Source of the DNA: Escherichia coli
Lineage (GTDB): Bacteria > Pseudomonadota > Gammaproteobacteria > Enterobacterales > Enterobacteriaceae
Assembly: GCF_001677475.2 (NCBI RefSeq)
Contig: NZ_CP015229.1
Reading direction: 5' to 3' (one strand)
DNA length: 64,000 nucleotides
Part shown: positions 5,619 through 12,150 of the stretch, piece by piece
Numbering within the stretch: position 1 is the first letter of the stretch
How the letters are laid out: each line of letters opens with the position of its first letter
Program-made: the position numbers and the translations under genes
Notes under the pieces: generated by a model
Told to the model about the DNA's origin: nothing
The model's input: only the letters and a program-made list of their open reading frames with translations
Database searches by the model: none

Positions 5619-7230
5619 GAATTTCTCCTGAAGCGCTGACTTCGCCAAACCAGCCGTTATCATCTATCGTACGCAGCGAAATGGCGTTATCCATTGGAAT
5701 CGAAAATTTGACTGTGGTCTTATCCATCTGCCCCACTTCGCCAGAGATATCAGTCCACGGTGTGGTCAGCCACAGCGCATCGGTCATATCCCGCCAGCTA
5801 TCATCGCACCCGGCATCGTAGGTTTTTGTAGCTCCGTTGCGGGTAATAAAGGAAAGCGTCGCCGGGAACGGTACTTTCGCCTTACCGTCATCGGAGCTGA
5901 AGACACAATAGGAGCGCCCGCCAATCACCTGCGCGGGTCCGGTCACCTTGATCAGCACTTCGTCGGCAGCTGTTTTACCGCTGGTGGTTACGATATAGCC
6001 GAAATCGAGTGCCGACTCGCCGCTGCCGACATATCCCTCCCGCGACGGTGTCTGAGTATATTCATCGGAGATAATACTGATGCTGAAATCACGGGGTTTG
6101 ATAAGCAGCGTGTTGGAGGTAGAAAATTCATACCAGCCAGACTCCGGTGATGTGGTGTTCTGAAAGCGAAAGTTGAACAGATCTTTGGTGTTGATATCGC
6201 TGATCCCGAGGTTCACCATCTGCTTAAAGAAGTTGCTCGAGAAGAAAACATAGATCGAGTCTGCGCTCTTCATCTCGTTGAAGGTGTAGTAATAGGCAGT
6301 ATTGCTCACCGGTTTCCATGAACTGCCATTCAGACTGAACTGCATATCGTACGCCCCGACGGCCGAGGCTAACGACGAGTTGGCGATCGCCGGGAATATA
6401 TGGATTGAGGTGTTGCTGAGTCCGTTTGTTTGCAGGGTGTAGTTGACCATCTTACAACTTAATCCTGAAAGGCTGCCGATGGTTTGTGTCCGGCAGTCGG
6501 CGTTCCCTTCGCCCAGAGTCGGTACTCCGTCGCTGTTGATAAATACCTCCGCCAGCGAGTGGGTATTTATTAACCGCAGATTTGCTGCTTTCGTATGGGT
6601 GACGTTGCGAACATACCAGTTGCCGGAGGCCTGATCCTTACAGCGTGCGCCGCTGCTGGCGTCATAGTTCACAGAGGTCTGGCAGGCATTGATGGTCATT
6701 GTAAAGCTGCTGCCGACGGGCATTTGTTGCATATACTGGTAAAACGCGTCTGACAACATGCCGTGCATCCACTTCGCGCCGCCGCTGGTCACCGTCGCGC
6801 CATAAAATCCACTGGCGTCGGTGGTTTGCGGCAGGATAAGACTGGTGGTCATATTACACCCTGCGTACCAGTTGATGCAGCGTAAGCCAGTTAAAGGAGA
6901 TGATACCGGCGAATTTTCCAGCCACATATCAAACTTCCAGTTGGTATAGAGGCCGGTGTTGTAACCGTTATCAATGTAGCCGAGGCTTTGCTGATAAATG
7001 GTTCCTGAGCCAGTGTATTTTAAACCGGTCCAGCGGTTAGCACCGGTCAGGCGCGGATCCAGCGCCCCGCCAGGCGTGACGAAAAAGTTGTCGTCTGAGT
7101 TGTTTTCGACAAACACAAACTCGCTTGCCGGTGCATCCGCCCAGGTTGTTTTGCTCACTGCAGCTCTGAGCGCGGTTGCTGGCCAGATTAACGCAAATAT
7201 TATCATCGCTATCAGTAGGTTAACTCTCAT
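5587..7230 (-). CDS. ecpD: E. coli common pilus tip adhesin EcpD
   Basis: ORF track 547 aa [23 protein letters not shown]...; operon synteny. Confidence 0.85.
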
Positions 7231-9745
7231 TCTCTTCTCCTGTCTGCTTCACGGCTGCCCACGATGAGAGGCCGCTGCAGACCACATCACCGACCCAGAC
7301 GGCACCGCGCGCCTGGTTGAGTTCCAGTGCCACTTCGCAGGTTTTATTGCCACTGTAGCGAAAATCGATAGTGGGGTATTTCTTGTCCACATCCATGACA
7401 AACTCGCCGTTTTCATCGGTTCGGGTTCGGCCGATATGGTTGTTAATCCGTGCGTTAGCCAGCAGTGTGCCGTCTTCCGCACGGATACGGCCGGAGACGG
7501 TAACCATCTGCTTCACCTCTGGCTCAATGACAGCGACATTGCCTGGATAGAGAGTCAGATGACTTTTGCGGCCGCTGACGATATCGTAACTGTCGAGTGA
7601 GTTTTTGCTGTTCTGTAACTCCACCTCATATCTTCCATAGGGAGAGAGCGGGAGATAGTTACGCTTGCCGTTAAGCGGGAAAATCCGCCCGTTGATTTTG
7701 GCGCTGATCTGACCGTCGTCCTCCAGCCCTGTGTTGAATATCACCCCAGCGTTGCCATCAGTCCGCCCGCTGGCAGCAATGTTTTTACCCTGCCAGCCGA
7801 CGCTGCCATTGGCGGTCAAGTTGGTATTGACGTAGCCGTCCGCCGCGCTATTGACGTTCAGCGTTCCGCTGGCGTAACGAGCGTCGAACTGTGCATACGC
7901 CCCACCGCTGAGGGTTTTGTCATCACCGGTATCGCCGGAGATGGCACGTGACAGATTGGCACCAACAGTGCGAATGGTTCCTTCATCAAACTGTTTGCGT
8001 GCTGACAGGTTTGCCATGGTGTAGCCGTTTTGATGGGTCATCCCTGCGCTAAACCAGTTGCCCAGTGGGAGCGAGAGATCGAGAGCGATATATTTCCCGG
8101 TATTGGCGTTGCTGTCGCCGTTGTTATAGCGCTGAATACCGGCCCGCAGGCCAAGCGAACCAAAGTTACCGCTGTAGACATTTTGATAGTAATCTGCTGT
8201 GTAATAATGGTTGTTGTAACGGCGGTCATCATTGTAGCTGATGCTGAATGTGCCCAGCTTCGACCACAGTGAGTTCAGGTTGAGTGTGCCGCCGATAGCA
8301 CGGTTGTCGGCATCGCTACGTCGCAATTGATTGCCAATGCGGGTTTTTTCCTGATTAACCCACAGCGAACTAAAGCCTCCCGGTAGAGTGGCGCTGATGC
8401 TGCCGATGCTGCTCCATGAGCTGTCACTGGCCAGCATATTTTGCAGGTTAACGTTGATTGCCCCCCCAAGCGGCAGCGTCAGACGGGTTTCACCCACCGC
8501 CTGATTATCGTATCCATATCCCGTTGCCGCCCAGCTAAGCGTACTCAATGAGCCGGAGGTCGAGGCACCTGCTAGCCAACTCTCTTTAGCTGGTCGCGTC
8601 TTTTTCCCGTTTTCCGACCAGCGATCCATATGAAAGCTACCGCCCCATATCTGCCACGCCAGTGGTGCACCGACTCCGCGCCCCCGGCTAAACAGCTTAT
8701 TGACCCGCTGGGTGCGTTTGCTGATCACGCGACCATTAACGATCACCTCAACTTCCACATCGTAAATACCGTACGGTAGACCCCGGGTATCCACTTCATG
8801 ATTGCCCATGGTGAAGTTCTGAACGCTTAGTAGCCGCCCATCACGGGTGAGATGTACTTCACCCGCCGCCGGTAAAAAGGCGATCACTGGCGTGGCAGAC
8901 TGGCTGCTGTCGAAGATGGTGGAGCTGGCCTGGTTTCCCCAGGAAAGGCCGTAAATCTTTCCTGCTGAAATGGCGGTCATCGGCCCTAAGGACTGCAAGT
9001 TCCAGGTGTCGAGCATTCCACCGGCAAATCGGTGACCGGCAAAATCGCGTTCGTACATCGCTTTATATAATTCACTGTCCTGTTGACCGCTACCGATCCC
9101 ATACAGCGAGCCGTCGAGCACCACGTGATGTTCGCGCAGCGCAGTAACGTTATTCAGCGACAGATAGCTGGATGTGTTGCTCCCGCCGTTACGCAACTGG
9201 TTGTTATAGACGCCGAAGTTATAGCTCAGATTACTGCTGAGGGTGTTAACACTGGACTGCCCGATGTCTTCGCTACGTGAGCGTAGTACGGTGCCCAGCG
9301 CTTCGCGCTTGACCACCAGCTGCAGCAGCAGTTGGCGCAAGCTGAGATCCAACTGCGCGTTGTCAGTCAGGGGGATGGTAAGGGCCTCATTGAACGGGGC
9401 GTTCGCCAGAGCCATCAGCTGCTGTCGAGTTTGTTCGCTGACACTGGCGTTATCTTCACTCTCTTCCAGCTGTATTTTCCGGATGCGTAGCTGTCCATCA
9501 TCCAGCCAGATAAAAGCGCTGCCGATTCGCTGATCGTCCTGGCGACCCTGGCTACCGGCGAGATGAATATAGAGCGGGACGCTCATGCCGTCCTGAAGCG
9601 CCTGACTGAAGGCCTGCGGAATAATCACCCCACCTATTTGCTGCGCACTTATGTCAGCAGCGCTGGCATCGGGTTGAACGAACAAAAAGACCATGCCGAA
9701 GGCAAACTGGGCTTTCAGTCCTGGGGAGAACCGTCGTAAAGGCAT
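7220..9745 (-). CDS. ecpC: E. coli common pilus usher EcpC
   Basis: ORF track 841 aa; 11-nt overlap with ecpD. Confidence 0.85.
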
Positions 9746-9770: not shown

Positions 9771-10439
9771 CTATTTCACGGGAATGAACTTATCACCCTG
9801 CCAAAGTGCAACCCGTCCTTTGTTATCCGCCGTGTCCACGCGGGTAAAACGACGCGACTTGCCCGGCATCAGGTAGTAATTCTCTTTACACTCCTTACCA
9901 TTGGCGGCTTTCAGGCAGGGGCCGTAAGCGAGGATCCGCAGCGTCGCATTTCCTGTATTTGTCAGGGAGCCGTTGGCGTACTGAAAGTGGTAGTTCGCCT
10001 GGCGGGGGGCGACGACCAGAATGGTGCCGATGCGGGCGGAAGCAGTGGCCACAGCGCTGCGGTTGGCATTATCGCGCTGTGCATCACTGAGGGCCTGATC
10101 AAACCAGACAATGCGGTAGTAGCGCTCTTTTTCATCTGCAGGTCCCTTATAGAAGAAGCGGATCACTTCGCTGGCTTGGGCGGGTAGCAGCAAGCTGGCG
10201 GGAGTGAGTAGCAACTCATCCGGCTTGTCCATTGAGATAACCTGCCCGTCGTCAAGCGGTGAAGAGAGCCGTTCGAGACGGATATTGATAAGGCGACCAC
10301 TGTCGGTACTGTTTTTGATCGTTTTGCTCAGCGTGCTGCTGTCACTGTTCATAAACGATGATATATCGCCGACATCTAGCGCCTGGGCCGGAGATATTCC
10401 GGAAAACAGCAGAGCGAGAGGCAGAAGGTGCTTTTTCAT
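9771..10439 (-). CDS. ecpB: E. coli common pilus chaperone EcpB
   Basis: ORF track 222 aa [20 protein letters not shown]... Confidence 0.85.
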
Positions 10440-10460
10440 AACAATTCCGTCCAGGAATAA

Positions 10461-10481
10461 AGCAGGGGGGCTACCCCTGCT
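10461..10481 (-). terminator. Intra-operon hairpin between ecpA and ecpB (possible attenuator)
   Basis: Perfect 8-bp stem AGCAGGGG/CCCCTGCT with 5-nt loop, 16 nt downstream of the ecpA stop; weak U-tract. Confidence 0.4.
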
Positions 10482-10496
10482 GGTACATCAGAGAGA

Positions 10497-11084
10497 TTAA
10501 CTGGTCCAGGTAGCGTCGAACTGTACGCTAACGTCGCCGCTCCAGATGCCTTCCGGTAGAGTGCTGTAATCGGTTACTGCGGTGGTACCATTGGTGGTGC
10601 CGCTGATGATGGAGAAGGTGAAACCATCCTGTGCGGTGGTACGATTGCTGGCATTGTAACCGTTAGCCAGCGGGCTAAGGTTGCCGCCCAGTACGCCGTT
10701 GGCGGTATCGATCATCACGGTATCGCCAGTTTTTTCGACTGCCGCGCCGTTATAATCCACGCCCACATTCAGTGTGGAACCTGAGGTATCCAACTGGGTT
10801 AATGTGTTGGTGATAAGACGTGAGGTCAGTTTAAAGGCGGTAGCCGTTGAGTCACCCTCGATAGCCACGTCAAATAGACCTTTCTGTGAGTTAAAACCTT
10901 TAATGCCTTCGGCATACTGGAACGCCAGGCTACCGAGTGGCGTCACAACCAGTTTACTGGTGGTGTCTTTTTTGGCTGTTGCCGACCAGGTCGCTACAGC
11001 CTGAGCTGTTACGTCAGCAGCCTGCGCCACACCCATGCCGGTAAACACCGTTACCAGAGCTATTGCCAGAACCTTTTTTTTCAT
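10497..11084 (-). CDS. ecpA: E. coli common pilus major pilin EcpA (MatB)
   Basis: ORF track 195 aa [33 protein letters not shown]... Confidence 0.9.
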
Positions 11085-11158
11085 TGCATTTCTTCCCGAG
11101 TTGAATTGAGGACGTGATGTCCCTGTGAGTCATTTTTTAAAACTAACTTGCCTGGAGT

Positions 11159-11770
<612 letters not shown>

Positions 11771-12150
11771 TTACAGGTGCATTCAGTTTCATTAGTAAAC
11801 CGGAAGTAAATAAGATACGTAGCACATATCAATAAAGGTTAAACGAGATTAAGTTTAATTATTTTCGATTGGGCTTAAATTTATGTTTTTTTCCCGATGA
11901 GTGTCAATATGTGAACGGAAAAGGAATTCAATGGTTAAGTCAATATTTAGAAAAACTGAAAATATTGCTTTTTTGATAAGAAGAAAAAGACATTTGGTTT
12001 CATAAGGTTATTGGCAATATAACGTTCATTTCTTACTTGCATTTTATATTGGTCAGGAATTTTGCCCTGAAGTGTTAGGAATAGTCTTAATGCGCTGTGT
12101 GATGGACTAGTAAAAAAACAAGTTTTAAGGGTAAGGGATAGAATATAAAA

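Follow-up and report, generated by a model that had tools for sequence, protein, structure and literature searches.

[quoted passage not shown]

In the pap operon of P pili the genes are ordered regulator, major pilin, hairpin and assembly genes (Baga et al. 1988; Bricker and Belasco 1999, both as summarised in PMC5927463). [quoted passage not shown] In the fim operon a stable hairpin occupies the short spacer directly past the major pilin gene. Klemm (1984, cited second-hand) suggested that this fimA-fimI hairpin terminates fimA transcripts, and fimI mRNA lies approximately 2.5 times below fimA mRNA (PMC9277811). Protective intercistronic hairpins, such as those of malEFG and CFA/I cfaAB, lie at the 3' end of a more abundant upstream cistron, are conserved between species and typically have no U tract (PMC5927463).

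[quoted passage not shown] Transcription of ecp and production of the pilus are often uncoupled (PMC5962669), and MatA/EcpR has been reported to stabilise 'the processed ecpA mRNA' (Lehti 2013, as cited in PMC5962669). A search of the literature outside the primary papers on ecp/mat transcription found no description of a stem-loop after ecpA. The original prediction proposed that a stable hairpin between the pilin gene ecpA and the chaperone gene ecpB, acting as a partial terminator or by stabilising mRNA, sets the ratio of pilin to assembly proteins, as in pap and fim.

The window, which is the whole 64,000-nucleotide stretch of E. coli DNA analysed here, was compared with complete E. coli genomes by BLAST. 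The matching region (98-99% identity over 2.1 kb) is annotated with ecpR, ecpA, ecpB and ecpC, bearing out the identities predicted for ecpA and ecpB, and the ecp spacer was present in 4966 of 5426 complete E. coli genomes. The operon lies on the minus strand throughout the window, with the following features.

11907..11878, minus strand: promoter-like site TTGACA-18-TAAATT, on the same strand as ecpR (sequence scan)
11159..11749, minus strand: ecpR (matA), the regulator gene, first of the operon (ORF list and BLAST annotation; the RefSeq version is 543 nt)
11109..11123, minus strand: small hairpin GGGAC-AUCAC-GUCCU between ecpR and ecpA, some 25 nt upstream of the ecpA start, with an AU-rich stretch ahead of it (centroid fold)
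10497..11084, minus strand: ecpA (matB/yagZ), the major pilin gene (ORF and translation; ecpA annotation in the matching E. coli genomes; Pfam PF16449 in homologues)
10499..10497, minus strand: ecpA stop codon, TAA (ORF list)
10482..10496, minus strand: 15-nt single-stranded spacer UCUCUCUGAUGUACC, from the ecpA stop to the hairpin (sequence)
10461..10481, minus strand: hairpin of -14.4 kcal/mol, with 5' arm AGCAGGGG (10481..10474), loop UAGCC (10473..10469) and 3' arm CCCCUGCU (10468..10461) (sequence, repeat finder, terminator scan and fold)
10454..10461, minus strand: U-rich tract UUUAUUCC, counted from the last G-C pair, so that its first U is the last base of the stem (sequence, terminator scan)
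10440..10453, minus strand: rest of the spacer, UGGACGGAAUUGUU, with GGA motifs at 10452..10450 and 10448..10446 (sequence)
9771..10439, minus strand: ecpB (matC/yagY), the periplasmic chaperone gene, first gene 3' of the hairpin (ORF list, annotation)
9745..7220, minus strand: ecpC (ORF list)

The spacer between ecpA and ecpB is 57 nt long (10496..10440) and reads UAA-UCUCUCUGAUGUACC-AGCAGGGG-UAGCC-CCCCUGCU-UUAUUCCUGGACGGAAUUGUU-AUG on the mRNA strand. The repeat finder returned a perfect inverted repeat, with 8-nt arms (10461-10468 and 10474-10481) that are 100% complementary and 5 nt apart, and the terminator scan flagged the same hairpin with 8 pairs, 6 of them G-C, and the tail TTATTCCTGG; the perfect, GC-rich 8-bp stem that had been predicted between the two genes was therefore found by both programs. 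Its predicted distance of 16 nt from the ecpA stop holds if the first base of the stem is included and is one too many if only the intervening bases are counted, as 15 nt intervene and the stem begins at the 16th. A further 21 nt separate the end of the stem from the start of ecpB, and the two GGA motifs in UGGACGGAAUUGUU are probably the ecpB ribosome-binding site, judging from their distance to the ATG at 10439. On the sense strand, U occupies 5 of the first 6 positions of the interrupted tract UUUAUUCC. On the antisense strand the stem instead precedes GGUACAUC, with 2 U in 8 nt, and the anatomy of an intrinsic terminator is thus present only in the direction of ecp transcription. The original prediction had made no mention of UUUAUUCC directly 3' of the stem.

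The pap operon is the closest system in logic. The ecp operon shares with it the gene order, the excess of pilin message over the messages of the upstream regulator and the downstream genes, the small hairpin ahead of the pilin gene and a 3' stem-loop of the terminator type on the pilin mRNA, although in ecp the actual 3' end is inferred and the 'processed' pilin mRNA is known from a second-hand report. EcpR, which is of the LuxR type, and EcpA are unrelated to PapB and PapA, and the likeness is drawn without any claim of sequence similarity. The fimA-fimI hairpin is the closest in position. It consists of GGGCA-GGGA-UGCCC followed by ACCCUUGUG, with no U tract and with a loop GGA for CsrA, whereas the ecp hairpin has a U tract and, in E. 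coli, a loop without GGA; ecp is also not known to give rise to a small RNA. With canonical intrinsic terminators that serve as attenuators within operons the ecp element shares an 8-bp GC-rich stem, a 5-nt loop and a U-rich 3' tract placed past a stop codon and on one strand only, but its U tract is short and interrupted. Like the protective intercistronic hairpins it stands at the 3' end of a more abundant upstream cistron and is conserved between species; unlike them it keeps a U tract across genera.

The isolated hairpin was more stable than expected by chance (z = -3.2), with equal stability reached in 1 of 200 dinucleotide shuffles. Both strands of the 64 kb window were also scanned for simple hairpins with dG <= -14, a tail counting as U-rich when 5 or more of the 8 nt past the GC core were U. 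The window contained 29 such hairpins, compared with 8.1 +/- 2.6 in dinucleotide shuffles, and 10 of them had a U-rich tail, compared with 0.47 +/- 0.62 expected from 15 dinucleotide shuffles. The ecpA-ecpB hairpin is therefore beyond chance. Neither the terminator scan nor the window hairpin scan found another strong terminator-like hairpin on the sense strand within the operon, and a search with Rfam covariance models gave no relevant match, the only two hits being at chance level (E = 2.7 and 9). Two other candidates were dropped. A larger structured element spanning the whole spacer was rejected because the 81-nt region made up of the spacer and its flanks was not unusually stable (z = -0.85), the signal being confined to the local stem-loop, and a REP element was ruled out by the lack of copies elsewhere in the window or the loci.

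One genome per bacterial species was scanned with an EcpA alignment, which identified 47 ecpA loci. These came from genera that included Escherichia, Klebsiella, Raoultella, Enterobacter, Citrobacter, Pantoea, Phytobacter, Kosakonia, Cedecea, Pluralibacter, Serratia, Symbiopectobacterium, Morganella, Tatumella and Erwinia. Of the 47 loci, which represent about 20 genera, 44 had a stable hairpin in the spacer that separates ecpA from the following gene. The exceptions were two Tatumella loci, which have spacers of 28-31 nt without any hairpin, and the locus of Serratia grimesii, in which an insertion splits the hairpin. The distance from the stop to the stem was 14-15 nt in the Escherichia, Klebsiella and Raoultella group and 5-30 nt elsewhere. 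The stem itself differed between genera: GCAGGGG/CCCCUGC in Escherichia and Klebsiella, GGCGGG/CCCGCC in Serratia marcescens and Symbiopectobacterium, GGGCAG/CUGCCC in Morganella, GGAGCG/CGCUCC in Kosakonia cowanii and CGCUGCC/GGCAGCG in Erwinia oleae. Where GGA occurs at the stem-loop junction in genera other than Escherichia, it arises largely from a G run combined with GNRA-type loops.

Covariation was counted on a MAFFT alignment that had not been fitted to any structure. RNAalifold recovered the 8-bp helix, 6 of whose 8 pairs carried compensatory changes, and counting of pairs on the MAFFT alignment gave 89.9% of cells paired. Cells in which both sides had changed numbered 31, against 11.1 +/- 2.7 in column shuffles (none of 500 reached 31) and against 6-14 when the partner column was slid; the column shuffle is a generous control, since the sequences are related, and the slid controls agree with it in direction. 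A covariance model built from the alignment matched only the ecpA-ecpB site in 360 kb of sequence (the window and the loci). The alignment from the covariance-model search mixes both strands of the palindrome and was left out of the pair counts.

The position and the tail of the hairpin were conserved along with its pairing. Terminator-like hairpins on the sense strand numbered 50 in the 47 loci, and 34 of these lay within 60 nt past the ecpA stop, a region that makes up about 1% of the sequence. Across 40 distinct sites the 8 nt past the GC core contained a mean of 5.2 U, as compared with 23% T in the ecpA coding sequence, and in 38 of the 40 distinct homologous sites three or more of the first four bases of the tail were U. 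The U-rich tail was kept even where the sequence of the stem had been replaced. By these comparative criteria the hairpin is functional.

Transcript levels were taken from EPEC E2348/69 grown under virulence-activating conditions, as DESeq2 baseMean values (Pearl Mizrahi et al. 2021, Table S2). These are gene-level, low-count values from one data set, averaged over the wild type and an hfq mutant; the values per kb are approximate, being baseMean divided by the gene lengths of the window.

ecpR: baseMean 49.1, about 85 per kb
ecpA: baseMean 249.9, about 425 per kb
ecpB: baseMean 54.5, about 81 per kb
ecpC: baseMean 84.7, about 34 per kb
ecpD: baseMean 42.9, about 26 per kb
ecpE: baseMean 18.6, about 26 per kb

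In these gene-level EPEC counts ecpA exceeded both of its neighbours in density by a factor of about 5, ecpB, a gene of similar length, as well as ecpR. Correction for the listed hfq fold changes gave a wild-type ecpA:ecpB ratio of approximately 5.5. Uniform transcript coverage across ecpA and ecpB had been named in advance as the finding that would count against the original prediction; the gene-level counts from EPEC instead contain a step of about 5-fold. The density of ecpR was as low as that of ecpB, whereas attenuation alone predicts that ecpR should equal ecpA, so that processing with selective stability of the ecpA segment, or else an unmapped promoter, is also required.

The ecp operon is probably silenced by H-NS in K-12. 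The K-12 Term-seq tables contain no sense-strand 3' end at ecpA, a result that says little because the operon is probably silent in that strain; the sole ecpA entry of Adams 2021 is an antisense 3' end inside the gene. The TERMITe supplements made no mention of ecp, and the supplements of the EcN microgravity study gave fold changes for ecp rather than levels.

We consider it likely that the hairpin is an intrinsic (Rho-independent) terminator-type element within ecpRABCDE, which generates the 3' end of the pilin mRNA and then shields it, while read-through supplies ecpBCDE. Transcription would start at the promoter upstream of ecpR. Once RNA polymerase had passed the GC-rich stem and stood on the UUUAUU tract, a fraction of the complexes would release their RNA, and the released ecpRA transcripts would end in the hairpin. 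The chaperones, usher and tip adhesin encoded by ecpBCDE would depend for their message entirely on the fraction that read through. The stem-loop at the 3' end would in addition block 3'-to-5' exonucleases, so that the pilin segment, including the reported 'processed ecpA mRNA', would outlive the rest. The net effect would be several-fold more message for pilin than for the assembly machinery, fitting the need for a large excess of EcpA over the usher. The structure, its anatomy on the sense strand, its conservation with covariation and the roughly 5-fold excess of ecpA over ecpB reads in EPEC are shown by the data; we infer that RNA 3' ends form at the hairpin and that the element causes the step in expression, to which termination and protection from decay may contribute in any proportion.

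Several features bear on how strong such termination could be. A sequence scan found no promoter-like site on the sense strand between ecpA and ecpB, and because ecpBCDE have no such site of their own, termination must be partial. It may also be weak, as the U tract UUUAUUCC is interrupted. The lack of any hairpin in the two Tatumella loci and the mismatched stem of O157:H7, a lineage that produces ECP, weigh against the proposal. Conservation of that tract argues that termination itself has been selected, since protective hairpins are characteristically without a uridine tract. The proposal of a partial terminator or mRNA stabiliser that sets the ratio of pilin to assembly proteins is thus supported by the sense-strand anatomy, by conservation with compensatory changes, by the step in EPEC and by the pap and fim comparators. 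A terminator or stabiliser after ecpA would provide a concrete cis element for the post-transcriptional layer that uncouples ecp transcription from pili, and would show how one promoter yields far more pilin than usher. The hairpin is nevertheless an ordinary one: chaperone-usher operons are expected to have a hairpin after the major pilin gene, and earlier work has already reported a processed, stabilised mRNA of ecpA. As the same logic has been established for pap, fim and CFA/I, the understanding of chaperone-usher operons is unchanged.

The main rival to partial termination is that the hairpin acts as a stabiliser only, which we regard as unlikely. No termination would occur; RNase E would cut downstream and in the ecpR-ecpA spacer, and the hairpin would stop 3'-to-5' exonucleases, so that the ecpA segment persists. 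[quoted passage not shown] Protective internal hairpins are, moreover, common in E. coli operons (PMC5927463), and a conserved small hairpin stands ahead of ecpA, as in papA. That hairpin, in the form GGGAC-N5-GUCCY, recurs before ecpA in Escherichia, Klebsiella, Pantoea and Phytobacter loci, and by analogy with papA the GGGAC-AUCAC-GUCCU copy of the window is a possible candidate for the 5' protective stem of the processed ecpA mRNA. The tail of the ecp hairpin fits poorly with a barrier to decay and nothing else. Genome-wide, protective hairpins characteristically lack a uridine tract (PMC5927463), whereas the U-rich tail of ecp is conserved despite replacement of the stem, and a pure block to exonucleases needs none.

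A different role would be that of a small RNA comparable to FimR2. The hairpin and its 15-nt 5' tail would be freed from the 3' end of the ecpA message by RNase E and would act in trans on messages or on CsrA. The K-12 sRNA FimR2 (b4838) is the fimA-fimI hairpin and so has the same position; it is processed by RNase E, its hairpin 'resembles an intrinsic terminator', and its stem-loop suffices for stability. A GGA is also found at the stem-loop junction in many ecp hairpins from outside E. coli. FimR2, however, needs its loop GGA to bind CsrA, and the E. coli ecp hairpin has none; the stem, loop and 5' tail turn over between genera, unlike a base-pairing seed. The EPEC Hfq RIL-seq rows listed contained no ecpA or spacer RNA, although FimR2 is itself Hfq-independent, and the ecp hairpin had no Rfam match and by eye was unlike the FimR2 sequence. 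Release of such an RNA, with activity on messages or CsrA, is therefore improbable, and a FimR2-like sRNA from the ecpA message acting in trans, for instance on motility or biofilm genes, is quite doubtful. If true, a trans-acting sRNA derived from ecpA would be a second route beside the repression of flagella by EcpR/MatA.

The hairpin might instead mainly control translation of ecpB, through a more extensive structure in which the end of ecpA pairs with the ribosome-binding region of ecpB, and which allows only poor translation unless it is opened. The minimum-energy fold of the 81-nt region does pair CCAG/CUG at the ecpA end with CUGG and CGG immediately ahead of the ecpB start, and short outer helices, with UCUGU pairing to ACGGA, appear in several Klebsiella and Raoultella folds. 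This extended fold has, however, the z of -0.85 against shuffles given above and is missing from the centroid structure, and its outer helices are only 3-5 bp long and vary between loci. Control of ecpB translation would also leave the conserved U tract and the step at the mRNA level unexplained, and is very improbable as the main role of the hairpin.

It is hardly credible that the hairpin has no RNA function and is a palindrome arisen by chance, or that it acts at the level of DNA, for instance as a target for insertion sequences or a REP-like element: insertions lie at the hairpin in two other species and an IS421-family (IS4-like) element has entered the 3' arm in one E. coli strain, but across about 20 genera the hairpin holds one conserved position, shows compensatory changes and has its U tract on one strand only, about 0.5 such hairpins are expected by chance per 128 kb, and the element is not repeated in the window or the loci.

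Natural variation at the site, comprising the O157:H7 mismatch described below, the loss in Tatumella and the insertions in other strains and species, offers alleles on which partial termination after ecpA could be studied. The hairpin of K-12 is identical to that of the window. Other E. coli strains have a 1-nt loop deletion or loop substitutions with an intact stem, with energies of -15 to -16.6 kcal/mol. In strain OkiPb01676, the IS421-family element lies inside the 3' arm with unrelated DNA beyond it. The O157:H7 lineage, which produces ECP, carries a T-to-A change in the 3' arm (equivalent to window position 10464) that places an A.A mismatch in the stem and weakens the hairpin to -9.9 kcal/mol. 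The 91-nt O157:H7 version was identical in 300 records, and all of the 40 matches listed were O157:H7 or related strains. That this O157:H7-specific mismatch represents an adaptive retuning of read-through into ecpBCDE is conceivable but doubtful.

Many of the hairpins found between ecpA and ecpB at the 47 enterobacterial ecpA loci (L001-L047, one genome per species) are closed by GNRA-type tetraloops (GAAA, GUAA, GCAA or GAGA). The stems beneath these loops pair a G run with a C run, and in every case the G run lies on the 5' arm. Strong terminator hairpins typically have a stem of this kind with a GNRA-type loop, and the GGA motifs in the ecp hairpins are a side effect, arising largely from the G-run 5' arm and the GNRA-type loop. 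In the two Tatumella loci (L039 and L040) neither a hairpin nor a U tract was found in the ecpA-ecpB spacers, which are only 28-31 nt long. Tatumella represents a natural loss of the hairpin element in which the ecpA-ecpB arrangement is otherwise intact.

Within E. coli, the O157:H7 lineage (L050:101-191) has a T to A change in the hairpin's 3' arm, equivalent to window position 10464, which introduces an A.A mismatch into the stem (dG -9.9 versus -15.0 kcal/mol). This 91-nt allele was identical in 300 genome records, and 40 of 40 among the matches listed were O157:H7-type. The mismatch may allow more read-through into the assembly genes ecpBCDE.

The hairpin also seems to be a magnet for insertions, one of which was found in E. 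coli strain OkiPb01676:

L052:1550-1551, equivalent to window 10465/10466: IS421-family (IS4-like) insertion sequence, within the hairpin C run.

The insertion point is immediately 3' of GGGG-UAG-CCCCC. Beyond the element, the sequence has no relation to ecpB, indicating a later rearrangement or deletion. IS186, which is related to this element, prefers targets of the form GGGG-N6/7-CCCC, to which the hairpin is similar. In Klebsiella indica (L004) the ecpA-ecpB spacer is extended to 256 nt by an insert that lies between two copies of the hairpin region and includes the REP-like palindrome GTAGGCCCGAGTAAGCGAAGCGCCACCGGGC, and in Serratia grimesii (L028) the spacer measures 188 nt, with approximately 130 nt inserted in the hairpin loop.

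The fimA-fimI hairpin of E. coli K-12 (L053:875-909) is named in RefSeq as the sRNA FimR2 (b4838), and thus in one operon already the 'terminator hairpin' of a pilin gene has proved to be a trans-acting RNA.

Three further features were identified in and around ecpR and ecpA:

Window 11878-11907, minus strand: promoter-like site TTGACA-18-TAAATT upstream of the long ecpR ORF, the best in the region (10/12 matches).
Window 11109-11123, minus strand: small hairpin GGGAC-AUCAC-GUCCU in the ecpR-ecpA spacer, ~25 nt upstream of the ecpA start.
Window 10698-10730, plus strand: 13-pair hairpin followed by TTTTTCGACT, inside ecpA and antisense to it, from the terminator scan.

The start site predicted from the promoter-like site lies ~121 nt upstream of the GTG at 11749, in agreement with the published ecp promoter position. 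Hfq RIL-seq in EPEC recovered chimeras that join ecpR to RprA, with 18 chimeric fragments (p = 1.8e-8) whose ecpR side maps to the coding region (E2348/69 coordinates 281406-281509), and all six ecp genes fell 2.5- to 7-fold in the hfq mutant (Pearl Mizrahi et al. 2021). ecpR may be a target of regulation by RprA.

The small hairpin in the ecpR-ecpA spacer is preceded by the AU-rich run GUUUUAAAAAAUGA and is similar to the stem-loop that protects the 5' end of papA mRNA. Its GGGAC-N5-GUCCY form is kept in Escherichia, Klebsiella, Pantoea and Phytobacter loci.

The antisense hairpin matches a K-12 Term-seq 3' end at 310323(+), which supplementary file 1 of Adams et al. 2021 labels 'antisense ecpA' and lists for two conditions. 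Because the two coincide, the interior of ecpA is the end point of an antisense RNA.
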